From the IMG/VR virus record IMGVR_UViG_3300023053_000014, positions 1 through 38,743 of that record: a stretch of 38,743 bases of DNA; one strand, given 5' to 3'. The position numbers and the translations under genes are program-made. Under the pieces are notes generated by a model. The model worked only from the letters and a program-made list of their open reading frames with translations, made no database searches and was not told where the DNA came from. This stretch comes from a virus (lineage: Duplodnaviria > Caudoviricetes). Shown here one piece after another: positions 126-30,470 of this stretch; positions within the stretch are counted from its first letter, which is position 1; every line of letters starts with the position of its first letter.

Positions 126-185
126 ATTGGCCGTGCCCTGATCGCCCTAAGCTATTGAAAAATAAGCTGGCGACGGTCAGTAGTG

Positions 186-1443: not shown

Positions 1444-1472
1444 AAAAAGAAAAAGCCCGCACTAGGCGGGCC
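1444..1472 (-). terminator. Intrinsic terminator-like hairpin directly upstream of the integrase RBS
   Basis: Minus strand GCCCGC-CTAGT-GCGGGC followed by TTTTTCTTTTT. Confidence 0.8.
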
Positions 1473-1494
1473 TCGGGTAACGCTGTGTTGTTCT

Positions 1495-3179: not shown

Positions 3180-3776
3180 TCAACGGTTCCAGAAGTAGAA
3201 GCCCGAGGTCTCGTAGGCGTCGCCGCCCAGCCGCAGGTCGCGGCCGTAGCTTTCGTAGTCGAAGTACCGCGCCAGCTCGGCGGGCACGTCCTGCAGCACG
3301 CCCTGCTCGTCGATCAGGCTTTCGGCGAAGTCGGCCCAGGAATCGAACTTGCCCGCGTAGGCCTCCCGGAAGGATTCGAGGTCAACGTGGTCGCCCTCGT
3401 TGCTGCGGTAGGCAATGAACGCCTCCCGCTCGTCTTCCTCCAGCTCGTCCAGCGCCTCGACGAATTCGCACAGCTTGTCGAGGTCGGGATGCTCGCCCCA
3501 CTCGCCAGGCACGTCGTCATAGTCGTGGATGGCCCACTCCTCGGCGCTAGGCACCTTGCACTTCCCGTCGCAGACAACGCAGCGCTGGCCGCCGCCGTGG
3601 GTGAGGCCGCCGCCGCATTCCGGGCAGTCCACCTCGACATTCGGGTGCGGCGACTCCCGCAAGATGCGTGCGATCTCGTCCCGGACGTCTTCCGCGTCCA
3701 TGCCGACGATGTCGAGCCACTCGCCGTGCATGACGCCCGCGTTGTAAGAGGCCAGACAGGCCACGTAGATTTGCAT
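3180..3776 (-). CDS. ardA: Antirestriction protein ArdA (DNA mimic) with a Cys-rich insertion
   Basis: IYVACLASYNAGVMHGEW, EEWAIHDYD, YFDYESYGRDL motifs; highly acidic; start taken at MQIYV after GGAG SD. Confidence 0.9.
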   Translation of the reverse strand: MQIYVACLASYNAGVMHGEWLDIVGMDAEDVRDEIARILRESPHPNVEVDCPECGGGLTHGGGQRCVVCDGKCKVPSAEEWAIHDYDDVPGEWGEHPDLDKLCEFVEALDELEEDEREAFIAYRSNEGDHVDLESFREAYAGKFDSWADFAESLIDEQGVLQDVPAELARYFDYESYGRDLRLGGDAYETSGFYFWNR

Positions 3777-3792
3777 GGGATGCTCCAGGCAT

Positions 3793-3817
3793 GAAAAAGC
3801 CCGCACTAGGCGGGCTT
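3793..3817 (-). terminator. Terminator-like hairpin directly upstream of the ardA RBS
   Basis: 23 nt identical to 1449-1471 (GCCCGCCTAGTGCGGGCTTTTTC on minus). Confidence 0.75.
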
Positions 3818-3839
3818 CAAGTAATAGGGGGTAGGGCGG

Positions 3840-4103
3840 TCAGTGCGCCCAATCGGGCTTGACGTTCAGGAGGTAGGCGGCGGCCACTGCGCGGGCGGAC
3901 TCTTCGTCGGCCACGTCGGCGATCCACCACCACCGGTCCTTCCCGGCCCAGCGGTAGACGCCCCAATATTGCGCAGCGCATGGCGCGCACGGCTCAACGC
4001 TTCCCTCAAACTCTTGGCGCGGCCCGTAGGAGACCGATCGGTCACCGATGGTCACCAGCTTGTCTCCGGCCGGGAGGGCCAGGTCGTTCTCTTCGTTGCT
4101 CAT
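3840..4103 (-). CDS. Early hypothetical protein, 87 aa
   Basis: GGAG SD, in operon. Confidence 0.7.
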   Translation of the reverse strand: MSNEENDLALPAGDKLVTIGDRSVSYGPRQEFEGSVEPCAPCAAQYWGVYRWAGKDRWWWIADVADEESARAVAAAYLLNVKPDWAH

Positions 4104-4120
4104 GTCGAACTCCGGACAGC

Positions 4121-4143
4121 AAAAAGCCGCCTTTCGGCGGCTT
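4121..4143 (-). terminator. Terminator-like hairpin
   Basis: Minus strand AAGCCGCC-GAAA-GGCGGCTTTTT. Confidence 0.75.
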
Positions 4144-4165
4144 CGTGTGTGCCCCGCTGGGGGCC

Positions 4166-4318
4166 TCAGAAGAAGTATTTGGCGAGACCGATGGCCGCGG
4201 CGAAGATGCCGGAACAGACCAGCATCGGATACCAGCGCGCCTCGGCGTTGATCTTGGCCGTTTCGGCGATCAGCTTGGCGATTTCGGCGTCCGTCTTGCG
4301 GGCGAGACTGGCGTCCAT
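4166..4318 (-). CDS. 50-aa small protein with coiled coil and C-terminal TM segment
   Basis: MDASLARKTDAEIAKLIAETAKINAEARWYPMLVCSGIFAAAIGLAKYFF; GAGG SD; manual translation. Confidence 0.65.
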   Translation of the reverse strand: MDASLARKTDAEIAKLIAETAKINAEARWYPMLVCSGIFAAAIGLAKYFF

Positions 4319-4335
4319 GTGGGAACCTCGGCGAC

Positions 4336-4518
4336 TCATGGGGTCTCCTCCGAGTCTACCGCGTTCTCCCGTGCGTTGAACGCATCGGCCGCGTCGGCCA
4401 TCCGTCCCAGCTCCTCAAGCGCCAAGCGGCGACCTTCGCCCGTCCCGCGCTCAACCGCAGCGAGCAACATGGGGAGGACGCCGCGCCAAGTCGGTGTAAG
4501 GATGATGGTTCCGTTCAT
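4336..4518 (-). CDS. 60-aa early hypothetical protein
   Basis: MNGTIILTPTWRGVLPMLL...; GGAG SD, ATGA overlap. Confidence 0.65.
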   Translation of the reverse strand: MNGTIILTPTWRGVLPMLLAAVERGTGEGRRLALEELGRMADAADAFNARENAVDSEETP

Positions 4519-4652
4519 GCAGCGGCTCCAGTGAAGGGAGAGAAGGTGAGGCGGGCGGCCACAAGCGCGCCCAGCGTCGGGAAGAAGCCCACCACGCTGC
4601 CGTTGCAGCGGAGTAGCCAGCGGCCGCGCTCGCGGCGACAAGTGAAGGTCAT
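4515..4652 (-). CDS. 45-aa early hypothetical protein
   Basis: MTFTCRRERGRWLLRCNGSVVGFFPTLGALVAARLTFSPFTGAAA; ATGA overlaps on both sides. Confidence 0.55.
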   Translation of the reverse strand: MTFTCRRERGRWLLRCNGSVVGFFPTLGALVAARLTFSPFTGAAA

Positions 4653-5071
4653 GCGACGCGCTCCAGTTCGGCGGTGATCCACTCGCGGGCGATGGCCTCG
4701 GCGGTGGCGAGTTCGGGATCGGCCTCATCGGCCAGTCGTGCCCCCAGCGGCTCGGCGATCTCGTAGCCGAATACACCGGGGAAGCCGTCCGGCTTGCACA
4801 GTTCATCGAACAGCCGGTGCAGCATCCGGGCGACGTCGGTCAGGAACTCCCCGACCTCGATAGTCACCGGCACGCTCGCGCTGTGCCACCCGGCTCCCAG
4901 CAATGCCAGGTCGATTGGATCGAAGTCGGTGCCCTTGATGGCGCGGTTGACGTCCTCGGCGAAACGCTCGGCCTGCTGCGGCGTCATGGCGGTGGCGGCC
5001 AGCTCCTCGTGGTAGTGGCCGTCGCGGTGGAGGAAGACGTTACGGGTGCCGTAGGTGCGCAGCTCAGTCAT
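4649..5071 (-). CDS. Early hypothetical protein, about 140 aa
   Basis: GGAGG SD before MTELRTYG; coupled to neighbours. Confidence 0.7.
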   Translation of the reverse strand: MTELRTYGTRNVFLHRDGHYHEELAATAMTPQQAERFAEDVNRAIKGTDFDPIDLALLGAGWHSASVPVTIEVGEFLTDVARMLHRLFDELCKPDGFPGVFGYEIAEPLGARLADEADPELATAEAIAREWITAELERVA

Positions 5072-5339
5072 GGGCAACCTCCACGAAGAGGAAGGCGGCG
5101 ATGGCGAACTCCTGCGCGCTCATCCAGTCCAGCACCGAGCGCGGCACGTCGATGTAGCTCCCGTCCCCCGTCCCGATCTCCTCGGTGTCCAGGGCGCAGT
5201 AGAAGGTCGCCGAAGAGTCGGCGGGGCCGTACAGCATTGCCGGGGTGCCTGCTCCGGGGTCATCCGGGAACACCTCGCGGCGGTCCAGCTCGATCCGCCA
5301 TATCGGCGCATGGGGGCAGGTCAGGGTCTTGGTATCCAT
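5064..5339 (-). CDS. Early hypothetical protein, 91 aa
   Basis: AGGAG SD, in operon. Confidence 0.7.
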   Translation of the reverse strand: MDTKTLTCPHAPIWRIELDRREVFPDDPGAGTPAMLYGPADSSATFYCALDTEEIGTGDGSYIDVPRSVLDWMSAQEFAIAAFLFVEVAHD

Positions 5340-5354
5340 GTTGGGTAGCTCCTG

Positions 5355-5471
5355 TCAGGCGATGAGTACGTGGGACTTGCGGGTGCGGCAGAAGGAGAAG
5401 ACGTAGGCGCGTCCCAGCACGAAGACGCGGAGGAACGTGATGCCACCTACGGTTTGCTTTCGGATGCTCAT
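5355..5471 (-). CDS. 38-aa basic microprotein
   Basis: MSIRKQTVGGITFLRVFVLGRAYVFSFCRTRKSHVLIA with GGAGG SD; manual translation. Confidence 0.6.
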   Translation of the reverse strand: MSIRKQTVGGITFLRVFVLGRAYVFSFCRTRKSHVLIA

Positions 5472-5485
5472 GTGACCTCCGGGGA

Positions 5486-5647
5486 TCAATTGCGATGCGG
5501 GGATGCAACAGGCGCAGCTTTGGTGTCGCGGTCGGGGGCCTTGCGCTCCAGGTCATTCAGTCGCGCCCGGTGTTCCCGGATTGCCTTGCGGATGCAGCCC
5601 GCCACGAAGAAGTCGCGGGCGGTCATGCTGTAGTCGATGTGTTCCAT
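5486..5647 (-). CDS. First early gene, 53-aa hypothetical protein
   Basis: MEHIDYSMTARDFFVAGCIRKAIREH...; GAGAG SD just after the long hairpin. Confidence 0.6.
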   Translation of the reverse strand: MEHIDYSMTARDFFVAGCIRKAIREHRARLNDLERKAPDRDTKAAPVASPHRN

Positions 5648-5654
5648 CGTGGTT

Positions 5655-6198
5655 CTCTCAGTGAATCCGACCACCAAAAGCCCCAATCACCTAGGGCCTT
5701 TGGCGGTCAGACTCCACACGGTGTGTGTGTCGTCTAACCGTCGCCAGCTTCCGGGGTTTCTGTATGACTCGCCTCATGCGGGCCTAGGGGATCGCGTTGG
5801 GGCCTTGCGCCCCAGCTCGGGAGGAGTCGTTCAGTCCTCCCCGCTATCCCTAGGTTCCGCCGTCGTCGGCCAGTCCCCCGGTAACTCCCCACTCCTAGGT
5901 AGGGGACAACCTTCGCCAGTAACAGGCGTGTTCGCAGTAGGCGCTTTCCAGCACTCCACGGCCTGCGGGTCTCGGCACCATGCCGATCTGCAATCACCAC
6001 CGGGGCAACCGGCGGGCGGCGTCCATGCCGCTTCGTTCCATCCCTGCCTGTCCAGTGATCCCCCGAAGGGGATGGACCGGGTAAACCTCTTGCCTAGCCT
6101 CGGACGCCTTTCGGTAGGTCCTCGGCGCTCCAGCGTTATCCCTATTGGCTCTATGGCGACCTATCCGTGTCGCGGCCAGCGGTGGAGCGTTTCAGCGT
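5655..6198 (-). ncRNA. Candidate large structured non-coding RNA / early leader (~540 nt)
   Basis: No credible ORF. More than 10 stems, C(UUCG)G and GNRA loops, tandem G-A pairs and G-U pairs that work in the minus orientation. Starts just after a near-consensus sigma70 promoter. Confidence 0.7.
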
Positions 6199-6204
6199 GG
6201 GGCT

Positions 6205-6233
6205 ATCCTAGCCCGTCCTTCCCGGTTTGTCAA
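6205..6233 (-). promoter_or_regulatory. Early sigma70 promoter P2
   Basis: TTGACA-17 bp-TAGGAT on minus strand. Confidence 0.85.
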
Positions 6234-6293
6234 TCCCTCCCCGTAGTGGGATGGTCCGACTTGCCGAATCGCGTTGTTGCTGCGATGGGGACT

Positions 6294-6323
6294 AGATTAG
6301 ATCAATCCCGGATGCGGTGTCAA
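6294..6323 (-). promoter_or_regulatory. Early sigma70 promoter P1
   Basis: TTGACA-18 bp-TAATCT on minus strand; shares the GGGATTGACA context with P2. Confidence 0.75.
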
Positions 6324-6427
6324 TCCCCTTTCGGCAAGAATTTGCGAGAGGGCATCAATCGGCCTGTATAGGGCAACACGCGCGTGCGTAGGGCAGGCGG
6401 TAGGTGTGTCCGTCGTGGGCGTAGGGC

Positions 6428-6484
6428 GGGCCGTGGTGGGGCCGTGGTGGGCGTGGGTGGGGCGATGGTGTGCCGTGGTGTGCC
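6428..6484. repeat. Degenerate tandem array of about five 10-11-mers (GGGCCGTGGTG-like)
   Basis: gggccgtggtg gggccgtggtg ggcgtgggtg gggcgatggtg tgccgtggtg. Confidence 0.65.
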
Positions 6485-6670
6485 CAGGGCGAAACGCGGA
6501 CACGGTGGGGCCAGGTATCGGCGAATCAAAAAGACAGATAGGGACAGACAGACGCGGATGGATTGCAGGGCGTGGCGGCGTTGGATGGCGGCCGATACCC
6601 TAGGTACTGGATACGTGATCCAGTGGTTTGCCTTTGCAATCAATGGGTTAGCGCGGGTGGTGACAGCACA

Positions 6671-6741
6671 GGTGACGCGCGCGTTCTATCCGGGGTGCCG
6701 CTGGAGGGCTTGGGGGGCTACGGGGGGTGACGCGCGCGTTC
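6671..6741. repeat. 16-bp direct repeat GGTGACGCGCGCGTTC flanking a G-run, in the putative genome-terminus region
   Basis: Exact copies at 6671-6686 and 6726-6741. Confidence 0.7.
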
Positions 6742-6790
6742 CGAATCGTCATATGCCTCCTCGGAAATCTGCGGCAAACATTTGCTCCCC

Positions 6791-6991
6791 TCAGTCCCTC
6801 GGATCGGGAACAGCAGCCCGGCCACCGCGGCCCTTGGATACACGCCAGGCGATCATGGCGAGACCGGAGAAGCCCCACAGGACGCACAGGGGAACAGCCC
6901 AGGTCATCCCGTGGCCGTGCGCGTAGATCGCTATAAGGGGGTTGATCGGGGTCATGCCCGCGATCAGCAGGATCAAGAGGAGACGCTGCAT
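6791..6991 (-). CDS. Small membrane protein, last late gene (T7 gp19.5 position)
   Basis: Two hydrophobic segments; position only. Confidence 0.45.
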   Translation of the reverse strand: MQRLLLILLIAGMTPINPLIAIYAHGHGMTWAVPLCVLWGFSGLAMIAWRVSKGRGGRAAVPDPRD

Positions 6992-7050
6992 GGTGGTGAT
7001 CCGTCGAGTGGAGACTCAGGTGGACGTAGGACACACCGTGAGTACATAGG

Positions 7051-7128
7051 ACTATCGATAGTTATCCTTGTTGATGAATAACTATGAATAGTTCTACTAG
7101 GTAAACCTATAGAAGAACTATAGATATA
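7051..7128. promoter_or_regulatory. AT-rich palindrome cluster (possible origin, packaging or operator region)
   Basis: ACTAT-NN-ATAGT at 7051-7062 and 7081-7092; hairpin ATAGTTCT...AGAACTAT at 7088-7121. Confidence 0.5.
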
Positions 7129-7187
7129 CAGGGTAGCACGCCTGTCAAGAGGGGCCGGAGGTCTTCTCCGCCGACCCCATCCTGGTC

Positions 7188-7643
7188 TTACTTCCTGGGT
7201 TTCAGCCAGGTCCGACGTTGGGTGTCGTAAGTGCGAACCGGAGGTCCACTATAGAGGTCCGTGGTGCAAGCCAGGAGTACAGCCTCCGTGGCGGTCTTCC
7301 CATCCTTCATCCCGGCCAGGGCAATCGGTGCGCCACTGCCAGCGACGAACAGGTCGCGGCGGACATCACAGGCGAGACCGTCCTCGCCGTAGTAGGCCAC
7401 CGGGTTCTCCCGCAGGCCGACCACGAGGACGGAGTAGTCACCCATCGAGAGGCGTTCGTCCCCAGCGGCGATCTCTCTGACCGCCTGCTGGATTTCCGAG
7501 GAAGTCCCTGCGCCGAACACGATCAGCTCCTTGCCGTCGTCGGTGGTCACCGCGTAGGACTTGTCCTCCTCGTAGCGGATGCCCCCGGCAGTCACCTGGC
7601 TGTCGATAGCAACCAGGCGACCGTCGTAGGCGAGGGTAGTCAT
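7188..7643 (-). CDS. Ntn-hydrolase, proteasome beta-subunit/HslV-like peptidase
   Basis: Starts MTTLAYDG (Thr1 nucleophile), DSQVT, GSGAPIALAG, EAV..A...DLYSG; ATGA overlap with the upstream gene. Confidence 0.75.
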   Translation of the reverse strand: MTTLAYDGRLVAIDSQVTAGGIRYEEDKSYAVTTDDGKELIVFGAGTSSEIQQAVREIAAGDERLSMGDYSVLVVGLRENPVAYYGEDGLACDVRRDLFVAGSGAPIALAGMKDGKTATEAVLLACTTDLYSGPPVRTYDTQRRTWLKPRK

Positions 7644-7960
7644 CGGCGGACGTTGCGCTCCCAGGCGCGACGGGTGAAGTCCTCCAGGTCGATGCTTCGG
7701 AAGTCGTCGATCACCTCGCTCACGAATCGACGCAGGTGGACGAACAGTCCGACCGGCAGCACCCACACGCAGAAGGTGGGGAGGAGGAACAGGACAACGA
7801 CGGCGAGGTAGTGACCGTAGCTGCGTGCAGCAGTCGCCCGCAGGCGCTCCTTGAAGCTCTCCAGCGCCAGCCCGAGGGAGAGCGCTACGTGCCCCTTGGC
7901 GGTGCCATAGGCGTGCGACAGGAACGCGATGGCGCGGTTGTAGATGGTCTTGATGGTCAC
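7640..7960 (-). CDS. Hypothetical membrane protein, 106 aa
   Basis: Hydrophobic segment YLAVVVLFLLPTFCVWVLPVGLFV; coupled to the lysozyme gene. Confidence 0.65.
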   Translation of the reverse strand: MTIKTIYNRAIAFLSHAYGTAKGHVALSLGLALESFKERLRATAARSYGHYLAVVVLFLLPTFCVWVLPVGLFVHLRRFVSEVIDDFRSIDLEDFTRRAWERNVRR

Positions 7961-8406
7961 AGTTTGGAGTTCCAGAGAATGACCTCCGCTTCGCGGCGGT
8001 CGATGAGTCCTTGCAGGTCCTTGAGGACGCCCTTTACGCGGCCCTTGGTCCAGCGGCGGAGCTGCGTAGGAACGGAGGCGTAGTCGCCAGCGTTGAGCTT
8101 TCGCAGCAGAGTGGATGTGGCGAGATTGCCTTCGCCAAGGTTGAACACGAAGTCGATCAGAGCGGCTTCCTGCGGCGCGCTAAGGGGCACGCGGACGAGA
8201 CGACGGACGGTGGCAGCGGCCAAGGCCAGGTCGGCCTCCAGCAGCTCCACAGCGCGTTGTTCGGTGATGCGCAGACCAGGCTTTACGTCACGGCCAGTGT
8301 GGCCGTAACCGATGGTCCATTTGTCAGCGGGGCAGAGGTACGCCACCAGGCGCAGACCCTCCGACTTCATCGTCAGAGGGCGCGCGAGCTGGACAGCCTG
8401 GGTCAC
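7957..8406 (-). CDS. Endolysin, GH24 lysozyme
   Basis: EGLRLVAYLCPADKWTIGYGHT catalytic motif, FVFNLG, GLIDRREAE. Confidence 0.93.
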   Translation of the reverse strand: MTQAVQLARPLTMKSEGLRLVAYLCPADKWTIGYGHTGRDVKPGLRITEQRAVELLEADLALAAATVRRLVRVPLSAPQEAALIDFVFNLGEGNLATSTLLRKLNAGDYASVPTQLRRWTKGRVKGVLKDLQGLIDRREAEVILWNSKL

Positions 8407-8558
8407 ACCGGGGCGTGAGGATCGAGCTGGCCGCCAGTGACGGGAGCCGTGGGGGTGCCGTCGATGTCGTTGTCGTCGTCATCGCGGTGGCGGAGGAACA
8501 GGTACAGCAGGGCAGCGGCCACGAGGGCCATCAGCCAGGCAGCAAGGGTGTGCGACAT
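8403..8558 (-). CDS. 51-aa single-TM protein with acidic tail
   Basis: MSHTLAAWLMALVAALLYLFLRHRDDDDNDIDG...; AGGAG SD, GTGA overlap with the lysozyme start. Confidence 0.6.
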   Translation of the reverse strand: MSHTLAAWLMALVAAALLYLFLRHRDDDDNDIDGTPTAPVTGGQLDPHAPV

Positions 8559-8567
8559 AGGGGTCTC

Positions 8568-10241
8568 CTAGTACGTGTCGAGGTAGTTGGTGGGGTGGGG
8601 CGAGTTGCCCAGGACGGACCGGATGAAGTCGGCGTACTGCTGATCCAGCAGCTCGGCGGCGTACCGCTTTTCCTCCTCCGTCACGTCGCGGCTCATCTGC
8701 TCGGCCCAATAGTTCACGGCCATTGCGAGCGCATCGAGACGGTCGTCATGCCGGAGGGCACCGCGGTCACGGGTGATGCGGGTGAGCTGGTAGAACAGTT
8801 GGTACTTCTGATCGGACTTCTGATCCGCACGGAGCAACGAGGCATCAACGACCAGGCGATGCTGGTTCAGCACCGGCTCCAGGATGTTGATGATTCGGTT
8901 CTCCTTCGAGGTGCCGTAGTGCTTCACTTCCTCGATAGGGCACGGGTAGATGCGCTGCAGGACGGCCTTGAACAGCTTGGTGAACATGCCGTCGCCGAAG
9001 TTGGCTTCCAGCAGGATCACGGACACCTTCTCGGCTCGTGCGATGTGCGCCAGGGTCTCTAGGGCTTCGTCGTCGAAGCCCGCCTTGGTCGCCCCTGCGC
9101 GGCGCGCATAGAGCATCCCTCGCAGCATCGAGACCACCGCGTAGCCGGTTTCATCGCCACCACGGCCGGACGGGTCGATTGCCATGACCTTGCCCGTGAA
9201 CTCCTCCATATCCGGAGCGACGTACATGGGGCGGTACAGGCGGTCGCCAGTGAACCCGACCGAGGGGATGTCCAGAGCGTACTCGTTGCCCGAGGACCAC
9301 ACAGTGCGGACCGGGGCGACCTCGCGGTCGATGTCCATGACCAGCAGGTCGGAGAGCTTGAGCGGGTAGCGCTCGCTGTCCGACAGGGTGGTGTCCAGCA
9401 TGAACTGGAGCATGAAGCCGGAGCGACCATAGGAGGCCTCTCGCTCCAGCAGGTCCTCATCGGAGAACCGGACGGACTCCGCGTTCTTCCAGGCGAGGCG
9501 CTTGGGATCAGCGTCAAACAAGTCGGCCAACAGCGGAGCCAGGCGGTCGCCGTAGGTGGCACGATGCTTGGCATCCTTGGGGAACCGAGCGGGCCAGATG
9601 CGGATCGCGTAGCCGCGCTCGGGCAGCTTGTTGTAGATCGACTCTTCGGTCTGCGGGGTGCCCAGGTAGACCACTTCGCCACCGGGCTTGAGGACTGCGT
9701 CGAACTCCTTGATGAGTTCGCCCAGCTTCTCTCGCTGCACGATGGTGAGAGAGTTCTTCGGAACCTCGACGTCGTCGGCGACGATGGTGTCCGCACGGGA
9801 GCCGGTGAGCTGCCCCGTGATGCCCACGGATTTCACCGAGGGGGACTGATCGGGCAGCGCCGGGCCGACGTCGAATGCAAGGTTGGAGTTGCGCTGATCG
9901 CCGCGAGGCTTGAGGTGATGCAGCTCGGGCAGCGTCTCGATGAGGCGCTTGACGAACACGGAGAACGAGTCAGCGCGCTCCTTGCTCGCAGAGACCACCA
10001 TGATCTTGTGCTGGGGATTCTTCCAGAGAAGCCAGCAGACGTAGGCCGCCGTTACCCAGGACTTCCCGACGCCGCGATACGCCATGATGATTCGACGGCG
10101 CGGCCCGGATTGCAGGTACTCACAGATGTCGTACTGGATAGGAGTGGGCGTGGGGAGGCCCAGCTCCTTCCAGACGTACCAGGCGAAGTTGCGGAAGTCC
10201 TCGAACGGATGACGAACGTGAAGGCTGGTAATGCCCTCCAC
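8568..10241 (-). CDS. terL: Terminase large subunit (T7 gp19-like)
   Basis: AYRGVGKSW Walker A, GQLTGSRAD..VADDVE, IDPSGRGGDETG, HDDRLDALA. Confidence 0.96.
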   Translation of the reverse strand: MEGITSLHVRHPFEDFRNFAWYVWKELGLPTPTPIQYDICEYLQSGPRRRIIMAYRGVGKSWVTAAYVCWLLWKNPQHKIMVVSASKERADSFSVFVKRLIETLPELHHLKPRGDQRNSNLAFDVGPALPDQSPSVKSVGITGQLTGSRADTIVADDVEVPKNSLTIVQREKLGELIKEFDAVLKPGGEVVYLGTPQTEESIYNKLPERGYAIRIWPARFPKDAKHRATYGDRLAPLLADLFDADPKRLAWKNAESVRFSDEDLLEREASYGRSGFMLQFMLDTTLSDSERYPLKLSDLLVMDIDREVAPVRTVWSSGNEYALDIPSVGFTGDRLYRPMYVAPDMEEFTGKVMAIDPSGRGGDETGYAVVSMLRGMLYARRAGATKAGFDDEALETLAHIARAEKVSVILLEANFGDGMFTKLFKAVLQRIYPCPIEEVKHYGTSKENRIINILEPVLNQHRLVVDASLLRADQKSDQKYQLFYQLTRITRDRGALRHDDRLDALAMAVNYWAEQMSRDVTEEEKRYAAELLDQQYADFIRSVLGNSPHPTNYLDTY

Positions 10242-24191: not shown

Positions 24192-26314
24192 AGGCGGCTT
24201 CGAGTGACAAACATGCCGCGCCACTGTGCAGACTGGAACCAGCACTGGAACGGCAGACGGTTGACAAGGTGGATGCGGCAGGCTTCCGCGTTGGACAGCA
24301 CGGGGAAGCGCCGCGAACCGGAGTGGAACGTGGGGGACGAGGTGCGGAACGCCGAGTCGTTGAGGACGCGGGCGGTGTATGCACCGCTATGCGCAGCCAG
24401 GAAGGTCTCGCGGCGGCCGGTGCCCTTGCTCTCGACCTCGACCTCGAAGTAGGCCGCATCCTTGTATGCGACTTCGATGTCGCGCACCTGGAGGCGGCCG
24501 ATCAGCACGGCCTGCTTGTCCTCGGAGCGCATAAGCGGCCGGGTCAGCGTCAGCCTATGCTCGTAGTCCATGCCGACGACGACGCGGCCCTGCGCGTGGT
24601 TGCCAGGCAGCACCAGTCGTGTACCGCCATTCGCCCAAGCTGTACTTGCGGGCAGCTCCAGGTATGCACCAGGGTCTTCCCAATCGTCCGTCTTGAGGAC
24701 GGTGACGGCCATACCCTCATCAGCGATGAAGGGTAGGTCGATCCAGGTCTGATTACCGAAGGCTTGGTAGGAAGGCTGCACCACCGTCATGCGGTCCATC
24801 AGGTAGGTGTAGTCGGCCGTGACGTCGGAATCTTCCTGATTCAGCGCCAGGTTGAACCGCAGCAGCTCGCAGCCGCCCGCGGGTGAGGCGGCCACCACGT
24901 ACAGGGTGTCCGCAATGCAGTGCATGTGGACCACACGGCCAACACCCGAGATCGTCCAGCGAGTCCAAGAGGACTGCTGCTTCTCGTCGCCAGCCCATCG
25001 CACGAAGTAGGCGTACACCTGCGATTCGCGGGGATTGTCCAGCGCCACGAACACAGCATCGGCCTGGTCGCCGGTTGCGAGCGCGCGGATGCGGCCGGGA
25101 ATGTAGCGGGGAACATGCGCTGTCACGTCGGCGGCGTCGCCGGTAACCTCGGTGTCGTCCATGAAGTATTCGCGGATCGTGGCGTACTTGCCTTCGTCAT
25201 CGACGGAGTACAGAGACTCGCCCATCAGCCTCGGCTTCACCCAGGGGGAGGAGCTGTAGGAATTGACCGGGTCGGACTTGACGTACTTGGATGCCATGTA
25301 CGGTTCGGCAGTGAGCATGTGCTGGCCGCCTGCCGCCGCCAGGAACAGCGACGACTTGAAGGGCACCGCGTGGTAGAGCGTGGTCACGCCATTGGTCACG
25401 ACCGCGGTGTCGATGGGGTCGCTGTCGAGGACCTGGGTGACCGACGTCCGCCAGAGGTTGTACGGGTCGGTGACCTCGGACAGCAGCACGTTCTCAGTGG
25501 AGAGGAAACCCAGGCGCTCCCGATGAAGGAAGACGTCGCGGATGCGCTGGCCGTCCAAGGACGGCGGCGGGTTCGAGTCTTCATCGCCGGAGAGGCGCGC
25601 GGTCCACTCGGGGGCACCGAGCGAGAACCAGAAGCCGTCCGCGTGGATGGGGTCGGGGATGCGCTTGAGGATCAGCGGCATCGTCTTCGAGTCGAAGCGG
25701 TGTTTGATGCCGGGCTTGGCTACTTCGAGGTAGACCTTCTCCGACTGCTTCTGGACGTAGTAGTCGTCGAACTCCGAGAGATCGGAGCCAATGACGTTGT
25801 AGATAGCACCTGTCGGCACCATCGCTGCGTCCTTGCCGCTCGGCAGGTCGGACATCGTCTGCACGGAGCCGACCAAGGTGCCGGGCGACAGTTCGTCCGA
25901 CAGCTTCACCGACACCAGACGGTTCACGATGAAGGTGGTGTCGGCGTAGGTGCAGGTGGAGAACACCGACCACGGGCGCTGGCCCTGGGTGTCCAGATAG
26001 TCCAGTGCGGCCCCTGTGACGTTCACGGTGTATTCGTAGGCCGTCTCATGGTCAAACACTCGAACCGAGCGATGGCCGACGACCACGATGTAGCGCTCGG
26101 TGTCGTCGCGGACGATGGAGTGGAAGTGTGAATCGGGATTGAGGTCGGCGCGCAGGTTGCCCACGAATTCCGCTGGCGGGCGCTTGCCCGCGCCCATTGC
26201 CGCGTGCATCCAAGCGTTGACCGCCTCGGAGAGCTGTGATGGCGACCGGACGGTGTCGTCCTGTTGCGAGGTGCCGCCAAGGAAGGTCGGATAGGTTCCG
26301 GAGACCAGAGGCAT
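24188..26314 (-). CDS. Tail tubular protein B (gp12-like nozzle)
   Basis: MPLVSGTYPTFLGGTSQQ...KRPP, HRERLGFL, DVTAHVPRYI, QQSSWTRW. Confidence 0.92.
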   Translation of the reverse strand: MPLVSGTYPTFLGGTSQQDDTVRSPSQLSEAVNAWMHAAMGAGKRPPAEFVGNLRADLNPDSHFHSIVRDDTERYIVVVGHRSVRVFDHETAYEYTVNVTGAALDYLDTQGQRPWSVFSTCTYADTTFIVNRLVSVKLSDELSPGTLVGSVQTMSDLPSGKDAAMVPTGAIYNVIGSDLSEFDDYYVQKQSEKVYLEVAKPGIKHRFDSKTMPLILKRIPDPIHADGFWFSLGAPEWTARLSGDEDSNPPPSLDGQRIRDVFLHRERLGFLSTENVLLSEVTDPYNLWRTSVTQVLDSDPIDTAVVTNGVTTLYHAVPFKSSLFLAAAGGQHMLTAEPYMASKYVKSDPVNSYSSSPWVKPRLMGESLYSVDDEGKYATIREYFMDDTEVTGDAADVTAHVPRYIPGRIRALATGDQADAVFVALDNPRESQVYAYFVRWAGDEKQQSSWTRWTISGVGRVVHMHCIADTLYVVAASPAGGCELLRFNLALNQEDSDVTADYTYLMDRMTVVQPSYQAFGNQTWIDLPFIADEGMAVTVLKTDDWEDPGAYLELPASTAWANGGTRLVLPGNHAQGRVVVGMDYEHRLTLTRPLMRSEDKQAVLIGRLQVRDIEVAYKDAAYFEVEVESKGTGRRETFLAAHSGAYTARVLNDSAFRTSSPTFHSGSRRFPVLSNAEACRIHLVNRLPFQCWFQSAQWRGMFVTRSRL

Positions 26315-26904
26315 TAGACGTCCCAAATGTCAGAAACGTCCGACGAGCCGGACAGGAAGTTGTGGCCGCGCGCGTAGACGAAGTCGGCGTGTTCAAGCCC
26401 GAAAATCTCGAATGCTTCCCGCTCATGGTCTTCGTTGAAGACGTAGAGCTGGTCACTGCCGAGCTGCTTGGTCTGGAAGATTCGAGCTGCGCGGATTGCG
26501 ATGTAGCGGCGGGCGGACTCGGGAAGGTCCTCGAAGTCCAGATGCCACACGATGTTGGTGGCGGTCGGTGCCGCTGAGAATTTGTCCTCGCCAGTGCGGG
26601 GGTTGATGACGCGGGTTCCTCGGACCACCAGAGGGGTGCCGCCGCGGACCGGGGTCATCTTGAGGATTGACGCGGGCGGCAGTACGCGTCCCTCGGCGTC
26701 CAGGGTGAACGTGTAGGTGTCCTGCTCGTTGAACCACCAGCCCTTCGTCTGCACCTCACGGCTGACAGCGCGGAGGGTATCGAAGGCGATGGACGCGTCC
26801 ACGTTGCCGAGTGCTTCCAGGTCGCTGATCGGGGTTTCTCCGATTGCGCCGAGCATTTCGTTGACGGCCTCCAGAGTGGTCGTCGGGGTAAGTTCCATTG
26901 CCAT
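26314..26904 (-). CDS. Tail tubular protein A (gp11-like)
   Basis: LEAVNEMLGAIGETPI, VQTKGWWFN, FEDLPESARRYI. Confidence 0.92.
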   Translation of the reverse strand: MAMELTPTTTLEAVNEMLGAIGETPISDLEALGNVDASIAFDTLRAVSREVQTKGWWFNEQDTYTFTLDAEGRVLPPASILKMTPVRGGTPLVVRGTRVINPRTGEDKFSAAPTATNIVWHLDFEDLPESARRYIAIRAARIFQTKQLGSDQLYVFNEDHEREAFEIFGLEHADFVYARGHNFLSGSSDVSDIWDV

Positions 26905-26921
26905 GTGGGTAGGTTCCGGGC

Positions 26922-26959
26922 AAAAAAACGGGGGACACCCGTGAATGGATGTCCCCCGT
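26922..26959 (-). terminator. T-phi-like terminator after the capsid gene
   Basis: Minus strand ACGGGGGACATCC-ATTCAC-GGGTGTCCCCCGT followed by a T run. Confidence 0.85.
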
Positions 26960-27023
26960 AGGTGGAGAGAGAAGGCCCGCCGATTTGCGCTTACGTGCAG
27001 AGGCGTGGCGGGCGTATTGCGGG

Positions 27024-27974
27024 TTAGGCCTTCGACAGCTCGATGGCACCACGCGGGTCGAGTTCACCGTGGCCCAGCGCGTACTTCGCCAGCATCAGGG
27101 TGCCCTGCTTCTCGCCCTGGTAAACGTCTTCCAGGGCCAGGTCCAGCAGCTTGAGCGTGCCCACCGCCGAGCGATGGAAGATCACGCCCACGGTGTTGCT
27201 GTAGTCACCGCGGTACTTCGACAGCACCTTCGCGGCCGAGGTCTCGTTGGCCTTCGGCATCGAGTTGATCTTCACCAGCGGGATGCGGGCGATGGAGGCG
27301 ATGGTCGCCTGGCCGTAGGAGCCGTTCGATTCCGGGTTGATGTCGCGGTCGATCAGGTCCTTGTTCTCGGTCAGCAGATACCACTGAGCCGGGGACAGTG
27401 CGCCCGTGAACTCATTGGTGTTGTCCGGCAGCAGCTTCTCGTCGAAGATCATGCGGGCCTGGCGGAAGGCATCGGCCAGCACGCTCGGGTCGGAAGCCAG
27501 GGTCGCCGCCGAGATCACGGCACCGCCCGGCTGGCCTTCGACCTTGCCTTCGGTGATGCGTGCGGCACGGATGGCGCAGCGCAGCTCGTTCAGCATTCGC
27601 TTCTGCGCCAGTTCCAGGCCCTGCTGGCGGGTGTACTCGGAACGCACGTCGTAGTGGTTCATCGCTTCGTCGATGTTGGCGATGAAGGCGTGCGAGATCA
27701 GCATCGGGTCGAGCGTCAGGATCGTCTCGTTGTGTTCGACGATCATGCCGTTGATCTCGGTGCCCGGCACGTGGTACTCGGAGCCGATGGTGCCCATGTT
27801 CGGGAACGACGCCGACTTGCCGCTGTCGATGTTGCGGTTGGTCACGCGGCCGTCGAGCTTGTAGTTCTCGACGTAGCTGGTGATGACCTCGGCGGTGTAG
27901 TTCTGCTTGAACAGTGCCCAATCATCGCCCGATGCCTGGACCTGACCGATGCGGGACGGATTCGCGTTGCTCAT
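27024..27974 (-). CDS. Major capsid protein (gp10-like)
   Basis: ALF...Y.AEV, RNIDSGKSASFP, HYDVRSEY, AVGTLKLLDL, KYALGHG.L.P. Confidence 0.95.
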   Translation of the reverse strand: MSNANPSRIGQVQASGDDWALFKQNYTAEVITSYVENYKLDGRVTNRNIDSGKSASFPNMGTIGSEYHVPGTEINGMIVEHNETILTLDPMLISHAFIANIDEAMNHYDVRSEYTRQQGLELAQKRMLNELRCAIRAARITEGKVEGQPGGAVISAATLASDPSVLADAFRQARMIFDEKLLPDNTNEFTGALSPAQWYLLTENKDLIDRDINPESNGSYGQATIASIARIPLVKINSMPKANETSAAKVLSKYRGDYSNTVGVIFHRSAVGTLKLLDLALEDVYQGEKQGTLMLAKYALGHGELDPRGAIELSKA

Positions 27975-28004
27975 GTAATTCCTTGGATTGAATGGAGGGG
28001 GGTA

Positions 28005-28757
28005 TTAGCGGAACAGGGCGCTGACACGCAGGCGGTCGGAGACCTCCTTGCGGTACGCCGGGTCTCGGCGATAGCGCGGATCGCGCATCGCATCGGTGAC
28101 CTGGGCTTGCGACAGGAACGGCTTGACGCCGCTGTCTGCGTTCGGCGCAGTCTTGCCCGCGATGAGGCGGCCATTGCCGCCGCGGAGAGCAACGATGCCT
28201 TGGACGGCCAGCGCGGCGCGGCCAGAATCGCCGGAGGTCACGGCCTCGTTGAAGGCACGCTTCTGCTCCGCACTGAGGTTGGTCTTGGCCCACTGGACCA
28301 GGCCCTTGTACTGATCGGCACCGCCAGCGGCGGAGAACACGGAGTTCTCGTAGTTCGCGCGGCGCGCGCCCAGGCCTTCGACATAGACGTCCACCAGCTC
28401 CTTCGGGTAGCCAGCTTTCGCCAGCTTCTCGTAGGACTCGGTGGACAGCGCGCCAGCGGAGTTGAACTCCTCGGCGAACGAGTCCAGGTTGAGACCTGCT
28501 TTCGACAACGCATCACGAGCGTCGTCTTCGGTGGTGTCCTCGACGGTCAGCGCCGAGGTGTCACCGTTGCCGCCCTTGTCGTCGGCCGGCTGTTGGGTAG
28601 CCGCGAAGGCGGCTTCCAGTTCTTCCACGGTGGCGAACTTACCGCCGAACAGGCGGCCGTCACCGTCACCGGTGCCGCCCTGTGCGGGCGGCTGCTGGTT
28701 GGCTGCGGGCTGGCCTTCGATCTGCACGATGGTTTCGGACTTGCCCGGCTGGCTCAT
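28005..28757 (-). CDS. Capsid scaffolding protein (gp9-like)
   Basis: AGGADQYKGLVQWA, AMRDPRYRRDPAYRKEV C-terminus. Confidence 0.9.
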   Translation of the reverse strand: MSQPGKSETIVQIEGQPAANQQPPAQGGTGDGDGRLFGGKFATVEELEAAFAATQQPADDKGGNGDTSALTVEDTTEDDARDALSKAGLNLDSFAEEFNSAGALSTESYEKLAKAGYPKELVDVYVEGLGARRANYENSVFSAAGGADQYKGLVQWAKTNLSAEQKRAFNEAVTSGDSGRAALAVQGIVALRGGNGRLIAGKTAPNADSGVKPFLSQAQVTDAMRDPRYRRDPAYRKEVSDRLRVSALFR

Positions 28758-28903
28758 TACTCGACCTCGGCGGCGACGGCGTTGCGGATCACCAGGCCGT
28801 TGGCCTTGCGGGTGATCTCGATGTTGCCCTTCTTCTCGAAGGCCGGTTCAGCCTTCGGCTGCTTGGCGGGCTTCTGGTCCTTGGTGTCGGTCTGTTCGCT
28901 CAT
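28757..28903 (-). CDS. 48-aa hypothetical protein between portal and scaffold
   Basis: MSEQTDTKDQKPAKQPKAEPAFEKKGNIEITRKANGLVIRNAVAAEVE; TAATG overlap with the scaffold start. Confidence 0.6.
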   Translation of the reverse strand: MSEQTDTKDQKPAKQPKAEPAFEKKGNIEITRKANGLVIRNAVAAEVE

Positions 28904-28910
28904 CTGCTTC

Positions 28911-30470
28911 TCACTGAGTGGGTGGTTGGGTCATCGCTGACGCGATGTTGGGTGCGGCGCGCACCATTGCTTCCTGCATCGCACCGTCCTGCTGCTCGGC
29001 GGCGAGTTCGTCGTCGGAGCGGATCAGGCCCTTCGTGGAAATGTCGGAGGCGGATGCGAGGCGAGCGATGGCTTCGCCAGAGTTGAGGCGACGGGCGACC
29101 TCTTGGTCACCGACGAGAGCCTTGGCGGCTTCGCCGAACTCCATGAGCTTGTTCAGGTCGTGACCGCGGCCGAGGGCTGCGATGCCGACCGTCACGCGGG
29201 GCTTGAGGAGTTCCGTGGGGAGCTGCGGCAGACGACCGGCGCGCTGGAGCTTGTCCAGGCGGCGGCGGATGAGCGGCAGCAGTAGTTGTTCAGCGGACAT
29301 CGAGTAGAAGCCACCGAGGGAGTCATCGAGTTCCTGGGACATCACACGGATCTCGTATGCGGTCACGCGCTCGCCGGGTCGCTGCACTGCGGAGCGCACG
29401 CCGAAGATCAGCTCCAGCGATTGCTTGAGCTGGTCGGCCTCGGTGCGAACGAAGTTCAGGTCGTAGGCCTTCTCAAGCTGGAGCGTCGATACGTCGGCCG
29501 CGTCGCCTCGGAGGACGGCACCGGACTCGGCTTCGACGAGCTGCTTCTCTCGGATAGCCGAGGTCGGCTTGAGGAACATGATGATTTTCGCCATCGCAGC
29601 GGCACCCTTGCGGATGGCCCTGCGCAGCGCTTCCAGGGACTCGAACGCTCCGACATAGTCGTACACCAGGCCCTCGCCGTAGTCGTCCGTGAGGGACGGC
29701 GGTGCAGCCACAGGAATCCAGGGACAGGCGTCGATGGGGTAGGTGCCAAAGGTCTCAGGGACCTCTACGCCTTCCACTTCCTGCACTACCTCCCACTGCT
29801 GGCCGTCTTCGGATCGACGAATCCAGGTGTAGAGATTGACGTCGTCGTTCTTCGTCTTTTCGTCGCGCTCGGTTGCGAGCTTCTGCACGACCGCGGCGCG
29901 GATCGCCTCGGGCAGCATCGCGGGTGCGATCTTGTCCAGGGTAATCATTTCCAAGGTATTGCCCAGGCCGTCCTTGTCGATGACGAAGGACGTCAGCGGG
30001 TAGAGCTTAGGCTTCCCCTCATCGGGGTCGTACAGCAGGAAGTTGCCGGTGACGATGGCGTGCTTGGCGGCTTCGGAGAGAACCGAGCGGATGCCGCTGG
30101 TCTCCAGGTCGTTGATGACCAGGCGCTCCACGTCCACCAGCGCGGCCTCCAGTTCGGAGGTTTCCACACCAGCCTGCTCGGCGATGTTCTCGGTGTCGGC
30201 TTGATCGGGGGACAGCTTGAAGATGCCCGCATTCGGCGGGAGCCACGAGAGCATGATCTTCGAGCCAAGCGCGTTGACGCACTTCGGGCCAGTGTCGATG
30301 TAGGCCGAGCCGGGCGAGCGGTTCTTGGCACCCTCGTCCACCCACAGGCGGGGGAGGGTGACCTTGGCGCAGCGCTTGGCGCGGGTCTCGGCTTCCTTTC
30401 GGTTGGTCTTGAGGTCTGCGTAGCGCTTCGCGGCCGTTACTTCATCGGCCGAGGACTGCTCATTCGCCAT
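28911..30470 (-). CDS. Portal / head-tail connector (gp8-like)
   Basis: G.KCVNALGSK, DYGEGLV, ERVTAYEIR...ELDDSLGGFYS, ALGRGHD. Confidence 0.95.
   Translation of the reverse strand: MANEQSSADEVTAAKRYADLKTNRKEAETRAKRCAKVTLPRLWVDEGAKNRSPGSAYIDTGPKCVNALGSKIMLSWLPPNAGIFKLSPDQADTENIAEQAGVETSELEAALVDVERLVINDLETSGIRSVLSEAAKHAIVTGNFLLYDPDEGKPKLYPLTSFVIDKDGLGNTLEMITLDKIAPAMLPEAIRAAVVQKLATERDEKTKNDDVNLYTWIRRSEDGQQWEVVQEVEGVEVPETFGTYPIDACPWIPVAAPPSLTDDYGEGLVYDYVGAFESLEALRRAIRKGAAAMAKIIMFLKPTSAIREKQLVEAESGAVLRGDAADVSTLQLEKAYDLNFVRTEADQLKQSLELIFGVRSAVQRPGERVTAYEIRVMSQELDDSLGGFYSMSAEQLLLPLIRRRLDKLQRAGRLPQLPTELLKPRVTVGIAALGRGHDLNKLMEFGEAAKALVGDQEVARRLNSGEAIARLASASDISTKGLIRSDDELAAEQQDGAMQEAMVRAAPNIASAMTQPPTQ

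Follow-up and report, generated by a model that had tools for sequence, protein, structure and literature searches.

In phage T7, promoter A1 lies at position 498, A2 and A3 follow, and gene 0.3 starts at 925 behind a gene-free promoter-to-gene leader of 427 nt, which includes, before the gene, a stem that we take to be the one named R0.3. In LUZ100, promoters P1 and P2 stand 200 nt apart. T7-type early leaders of this kind are usually treated as promoter spacers. A more active leader RNA is known as put, from phage HK022; it acts in cis, suppressing termination by an RNA that binds to the beta-prime zinc-binding domain. The accessible text of PMC9378689 describes put as two stems just downstream of the promoter that work with no phage protein. 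RNase III cuts early sites of T7, according to the available part of PMC6938266, and GOLLD and ROOL form an RNA-only multimeric cage, according to that of 10.1101/2024.12.08.627333.

We compared these systems with a locus in the window, our name for the whole 38,743-nt stretch of viral DNA that was analysed. The window is a T7-like temperate prophage whose genes, all on the minus strand, run in the order tRNA-Leu (39–125), integrase, MarR-like regulator, ArdA, lysis, terminase, tail, capsid, DNA polymerase and primase; an RNA polymerase gene is absent from the record, which ends before any. Among the five relatives of the integrase that lie in named genomes, four belong to Stenotrophomonas prophages (65–86% identity), and the closest relatives of the prophage are residents of Stenotrophomonas. 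Relatives with 65–68% identical integrases (L161, L162 and L083) integrate at tRNA-His rather than at tRNA-Leu. Between the lysis genes and promoter P1, positions 6400–6800 carry short repeats without genes and are probably the genome-end region. The leader lies between that region and the first early gene, the place held by the A1-A2-A3 leader in T7 and by the P1-P2 leader in LUZ100, and its parts, with those of the operon behind it, are as follows:

6294–6323, minus strand: candidate upstream host promoter P1 (TTGACA-18-TAATCT) with GGGATTG boxes, read from the sequence; the same block occurs in relatives
6205–6233, minus strand: predicted host promoter P2 (TTGACA-17-TAGGAT), from a scan, in a block 89–95% identical in Stenotrophomonas prophages
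6085–6198, minus strand: Module 1, two adjacent stems from the predicted start site, the second with a bulge and a GAAA loop; homologs in L174 and L168
6025–6084, minus strand: decayed copy of a promoter block, by alignment to promoter blocks, which holds the UUCG hairpin
5885–6024, minus strand: Module 2a, lineage-specific, three predicted hairpins including one with a GGAA loop; no changes in L176
5751–5882, minus strand: Module 2b, a long-range helix around a three-way junction (pair probability about 1.0)
5734–5750, minus strand: segment 1, 17 nt, near-invariant, predicted to pair with segment 2 (an alternative hairpin) or with 164–180
5663–5714, minus strand: terminal stem of 24 bp, 15 nt before the first AUG, a predicted RNase III site (from covariation and fold)
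5486–5659, minus strand: first early ORF (53 aa, AUG at 5647) with its ribosome site GAGAG (5659–5655)
4117–4142, minus strand: terminator-like hairpin with U-run inside the early operon, predicted intrinsic
3790–3816, minus strand: terminator-like hairpin with U-run directly before the ArdA gene, predicted intrinsic
1446–1474, minus strand: terminator-like hairpin with U-run directly before the integrase gene, predicted intrinsic

An earlier note on this DNA had described about 540 nt without a credible gene, and the gap holds up: neither the ORF at 5734–6000 (minus strand) nor that at 5637–6371 (plus strand) has a PHROG or Pfam match, and against the variant L176 their synonymous and nonsynonymous changes number 1:2 and 5:6, respectively, with no synonymous excess in either, compared with 11:4 and 17:4 in two real early ORFs. 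That the gap encodes a protein is hardly credible; both frames are open, but they show no family match, ribosome site or synonymous excess and are missing from relatives. The first early ORF itself is conserved in L082, L083 and L168 at 55–58%; with no Pfam match, it was rejected as an N-like peptide. The promoter reported as TTGACA-17-TAGGAT is confirmed at 6233–6205, where it is the sole sigma70-like site that the promoter scan finds within 3500–9000. Overlooked in the first reading were P1 at 6323–6294, which falls below the threshold of that scan, the decayed internal promoter and the full length of the terminal stem.

The claim that the minus strand folds almost continuously was overstated. 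The whole region does fold better than its shuffles (z −5.26 on the minus strand and −3.15 on the plus strand), but without the terminal stem z falls to −2.15 (plus strand −1.9); by part, z is −6.7 for the terminal 100 nt and −0.22 for the 5′ module alone. Eight 450-nt coding stretches used as controls range from −2.0 to +2.3. Because the terminal stem carries most of the signal and the leaders of T7 and LUZ100 fold too (z −3.5 and −3.9), the region is not exceptional by folding energy alone. Among the individual helices proposed before, the GGAA hairpin, the GCAA hairpin and the long-range pairing 5751–5756/5877–5882 return with pair probabilities of about 1.0, and the helix that closes the three-way junction with 0.56–1.0. 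The GCC/GGAC hairpin stands at about 0.8, but its tandem G-A pairs are replaced in the homolog L174, and the closing stem 6183–6189/6126–6132 reaches about 0.5. A pattern scan for the GCC-GA-GGAC hairpin gave 74 matches, none homologous. The outer stem of the UUCG hairpin (6050–6077) is disfavored at 0.08–0.13 against 0.86 for a rival pairing with 6036–6048, and the hairpin sits in the fastest-changing part of the leader, where 7 of 60 sites differ in L176. The terminal stem is predicted with a probability of about 1.0, but its extent had been given as 5667–5710 and is actually 5714–5663, 24 bp.

Relatives reveal how the leader is put together. Pattern scans with the conserved 3′ block recovered six viral and seven metagenome loci; one of these, L170, proved to be the window itself and was excluded from comparisons. 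Stenotrophomonas-type prophages share both promoter blocks and 5755–5655 with the window and differ in the middle, which is shorter, at about 210 nt; in L174, two promoters and a 5′ module shared with the window are followed by a decayed promoter and a Stenotrophomonas-type middle; and L176 is 96% identical to the window over 6112–4545. Leader modules are exchanged separately, and among the relatives compared there is no homolog of the whole leader. Positions 6084–6025 resemble a promoter block in three of four alignment tests (L082, 1 of 1,000 shuffles; the window's own P2, 11 of 1,000; L168, 35 of 1,000), the failing one being L083 (169 of 1,000), and the decayed copy in L174 matches the promoter block of L174 itself (0 of 1,000). 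From these shared and swapped parts and the promoter-like internal stretch, we infer that the leader is a chain of promoter-plus-module units in which one promoter has decayed. A genus-wide search of 147 genomes returned four matches, none beyond the loci already known; L213, L225 and L254 were discarded as chance matches.

Module 1 keeps 30 of 30 pairs in L174, three of them by compensatory change in this comparison of two sequences; its homolog in L168 lies behind that genome's first promoter (score 78 against a shuffle maximum of 37), and no change in it is listed in the DNA variant X4. Module 2a has one weak match, to the L020 leader (16 of 200 shuffles; top match in 1.0 Mb at E 8.7), and for Module 2b a similar closing helix is predicted in L083-type relatives, with 78% of cells paired in a six-row alignment. 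The alternative hairpin of segments 1 and 2 is kept in six of six rows with no double change, and its refolding energy is −28 to −32 kcal/mol in all four types. In the terminal stem, 3 of 22 pairs are compensatory and 97.7% of cells are paired (six rows). A helix of at least 18 bp precedes the first gene in 15 of the 17 leaders folded, T7 and LUZ100 included, with start codons uncertain in three.

Selection on the modules is apparent from the comparison with L176, which differs from the window at 3 of 398 module positions, 7 of 60 positions of the decayed promoter and 47 of 1,110 positions of the downstream ORFs (Fisher p = 4e-4 and 4e-5 for the contrasts, from one pair of genomes). Among the changes listed, DNA run X4 has the same pattern and is probably of the same lineage. 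Judged by these counts, the modules are under selection and held tighter than neighboring genes, although low divergence from L176 could also come from recent recombination. RNA contigs, which carry no strand, cover the leader in five of five soil metatranscriptomes examined, out of six available (run by run, 5745–5958 and 6050–6225; 5742–6046 and 6089–6273; 5744–6057; 5779–6094; 5849–6029 and 6093–6243), all of them 2019 soil sets, possibly from one campaign, and found using this stretch. Scattered late-gene contigs are present in these RNA runs, so that DNA carry-over is possible. Most early ORFs have no contig in them, an absence to which we attach no weight. Three runs end at 5742–5745, where the segment 1:2 hairpin begins and where DNA runs X2 and X4 continue, a weak hint that the contig stops mark an RNA end.

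A cleaner family than the window's own leader is element A, a 205-nt RNA that lies between the tandem promoters of ten distant relatives with about 70% identity in terminase (L007:8295–8500, L011:14120–14325 and eight more). It folds into nested long-range helices around a multi-way junction with near-invariant unpaired positions, and 21 of its 44 pairs are compensatory, a count reached by 0 of 500 shuffles, though the alignment used for the count also supplied the structure, and counts of this kind are inflated by kinship. Rfam gave no match in the seven element A loci scanned. Module 1 is likely a remote homolog, to judge from sequence comparison: 3 of 11 pairwise tests link the two (0, 1 and 3 of 500 shuffles; the other eight are not significant), and four of eight weak profile matches of Module 1 in 1.0 Mb fall on the core of element A. 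An element A covariance model run on 79 kb gave no match to the window leader, its sole match being a 25-nt hairpin in L168. Other leader modules, of at least three types, stand behind the second promoter in L011 (14370–14610), L012 (15625–15785), L014 (16050–16415) and L020 (14575–14985), the last with a fold z of −5.5.

The earlier proposal of a functional structured non-coding RNA outside the known families is thus supported by compensatory pairs, by selection and by Rfam, whose covariance models found no leader family and no strong match that would remove novelty; across the window and seven relative loci, the only matches were to tRNA and abiF. A blastn search of cultured phages with three leaders gave nothing useful, and we found no description of this leader RNA in the literature, where subscription papers and supplementary candidate lists may hold these motifs. 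This group of leaders contains covarying RNA families that are absent from Rfam, exchanged between phages and conserved above adjacent genes.

With good confidence, the gap is an untranslated leader that heads the earliest operon in a temperate T7-like prophage and is predicted to be processed by RNase III. We propose a sequence of events that draws on what is seen directly: the layout, the mosaic, the selection on modules, the compensatory changes within both the 5′ module and the terminal stem, the terminator-like sites and the lack of a boxA-like word. Transcription by the host sigma70 polymerase likely begins at P1 or P2, and RNase III likely cuts the 24-bp terminal stem, which would open the first ribosome site. 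The upstream piece could then refold segments 1 and 2, which would stabilize the released RNA, and the 5′ module, in the manner of put, may let host RNA polymerase pass the terminator-like hairpins of the early operon. This antitermination role is a tentative suggestion. Among the roles named in the earlier note, the antiterminator has the most direct context; a scaffold finds no support. Terminator-like sites are predicted at 4125, 3798 and 1454, with a weaker one at 2923, and no consensus promoter was found between 6205 and 2469, so that ArdA would depend on readthrough. The same scan predicts two to four such sites in 8 of 11 relatives, one in one and none in two, compared with none in T7 and one in LUZ100. 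Near-identical units of a terminator and a ribosome site, at 1446–1480 and 3790–3824, bound early genes and occupy other positions in relatives; they are possible shuffling points. A promoter-like site at 2441–2469 on the minus strand lies ahead of the regulator and integrase, as P3 does in LUZ100. Several observations count against a put-like Module 1. In relatives, the module lies between two promoters, so that transcripts from the second would lack it; L016 has element A but no terminator detected, L020 has none and L012 one; and modules differ strongly among phages of one host genus, whereas putL and putR resemble each other. Module 1 is also longer, at about 110 nt against about 70 nt for put, and shows no similarity in the HK022 stretch compared. 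If Module 1 is put-like, protein-free antitermination would extend to T7-like phages and to the polymerase of Xanthomonadales.

Other functions for the same RNA have to be weighed against this reading. The released modules could be trans-acting anti-defence decoys, a first product of infection that binds a host defence or RNA-binding protein and is swapped like an early gene, which we consider rather unlikely. Modules are indeed swapped among close relatives, are held tighter in sequence than genes and have a promoter each, ArdA is encoded in the same operon and the contig ends hint at a stable RNA, but the leader has no match to an antitoxin, CRISPR repeat or tRNA family. A mimic of the tRNA-Phe arm was also rejected, as the loop of the sole tRNA-like arm matches that of host tRNA-Phe in neither size nor sequence. 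Further in favor of decoys, an abiF RNA follows the phage capsid gene, and a Stenotrophomonas genome (G002) carries an abiF RNA before an Abi_2 gene. Much less probable is that the leader serves processing and expression alone, as a spacer for strong promoters that keeps untranslated RNA in a folded state and offers a site to RNase III, with modules that have no activity of their own. The terminal stem gives most of the folding signal and the leaders of T7 and LUZ100 fold as well, and T7 grows without RNase III (accessible part of PMC6938266); the heavy covariation of element A and its nearly invariant unpaired positions argue otherwise, as does the stronger conservation of modules compared with genes. 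A single large ornate RNA that folds as a unit, GOLLD/ROOL-like and perhaps cage-forming, is highly improbable. The length of about 500 nt, the GNRA loops, the phage origin and the long-range helix would suit it, but there is no GOLLD/ROOL match at the gathering score in the window and none at E up to 10 within 5500–6800, nor any other Rfam match to the leader, and in close relatives different, shorter middles stand between the shared promoters and the shared 3′ 100 nt, an exchangeable mosaic with a decayed promoter inside and no homolog of the whole. The abiF element is the following:

26975–27012, minus strand: abiF RNA motif, scoring 40.9 bits against a cut-off of 37, downstream of the capsid stop codon and upstream of the late terminator

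The motif recurs at the same place in G003 (42.4 bits). As abiF motifs neutralize the AbiF toxin (available part of 10.1101/2025.04.15.648962), the phage copy, which has no abi gene adjacent, may be an antitoxin mimic on the most abundant mRNA.

Compatible with RNase III release and readthrough, and in itself unlikely, is a mechanism like that of P4 CI RNA, in which segment 1 would pair with nascent RNA after the integrase gene, before a U-tract, to form a split terminator, so that fewer transcripts would read across attP into the gene for the phage RNA polymerase. Its target would be this site:

157–180, minus strand: complement of segment 1 (180–164) directly after the integrase stop codon and running into a U-tract, read from the sequence

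The 17-nt complement is perfect in relatives and has one G-U pair in the window (−32 kcal/mol); in the G001 prophage, 1 of 200 shuffles reaches 17 nt. It is kept in integrators at tRNA-Leu and at tRNA-His, is followed by six to seven U in 9 nt and is not among the repeats at the attR examined (G142). In LUZ100, a terminator behind the integrase gates the polymerase gene (accessible text of PMC10134795), and the P4 CI mechanism provides a precedent (that of PMC4825925). However, the exact match in the window is 14 nt, which 30 of 200 shuffles attain (17 nt with wobble, 1 of 30). The target is missing from G003, which retains segment 1, six distant leaders tested have no such complement and segment 1 can also pair locally. 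Since conservation extends over the entire att arm, which is similar to the P1 block, a DNA site for the MarR-like protein would suit as well. The arm at 120–260 and the P1 block at 6262–6345 both have paired GGGATTG-like boxes, followed in relatives by the same 11-mer; perhaps both are sites for the MarR-like protein, or perhaps the arm contains a promoter. Segment 1 was also tried and rejected as a phage promoter (only two copies), as an integrase arm site (the repeats at attR of G142 are different) and as a guide to host mRNA (one 16/17 match in G001, not seen in two other lysogens). A fuller version is less likely still: the leader would be released as a stable RNA, its 17-nt segment would complete a one-armed terminator lying 5.6 kb away, after integrase, and the dose of leader would control the amount of transcription that enters the phage RNA polymerase gene. 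If such antisense gating is true, temperate T7-like phages would have a lysis-lysogeny switch built of RNA, an open question since LUZ100.

Set beside the described systems, the locus is most like the leaders of T7 and LUZ100, with which it shares its place at the left end of the genome, tandem sigma70 promoters, several hundred gene-free bases before the first gene, a long stem before the first ribosome site and an anti-restriction gene in the operon. It differs from them in having no sequence similarity to them, a decayed third promoter, an operon with terminator-like sites and modules that are covarying families of their own. A word that we take to be boxA, or boxA-like, occurs in the T7 and LUZ100 leaders and is absent from the window and the three relatives checked. 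The T7 A1-A2 element was rejected as a match, the T7 leader scoring below shuffles. To put, Module 1 is alike in fold, a pair of neighboring stems that closely follow an early host promoter, with predicted terminators downstream and no N-like protein found; put is smaller, probably differs in sequence and belongs to a lambdoid rather than a T7-like phage, and in relatives only some transcripts would carry the module. Module 1 found no match at E up to 20 in HK022 25500–30100, a stretch that presumably holds put, in a record without put annotation. With P4 CI RNA, the leader shares a predicted origin by processing from an untranslated early leader and, putatively, a segment complementary to the transcript of the same operon, but P4 CI has two targets flanking the RNA, against one candidate target 5.6 kb away here, there is no Rfam match and a candidate protein repressor is also present here. 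GOLLD and ROOL are likewise large, phage-encoded, non-coding and tetraloop-rich, but they are free-standing genes near tRNA islands with a pseudoknot network, in contrast to an mRNA leader with a mosaic build. For T7, a long leader free of genes is the usual arrangement. Overall, the leader is a real, selected and structured RNA, a T7-type early leader with undescribed RNA modules and not a member of the GOLLD/ROOL class.
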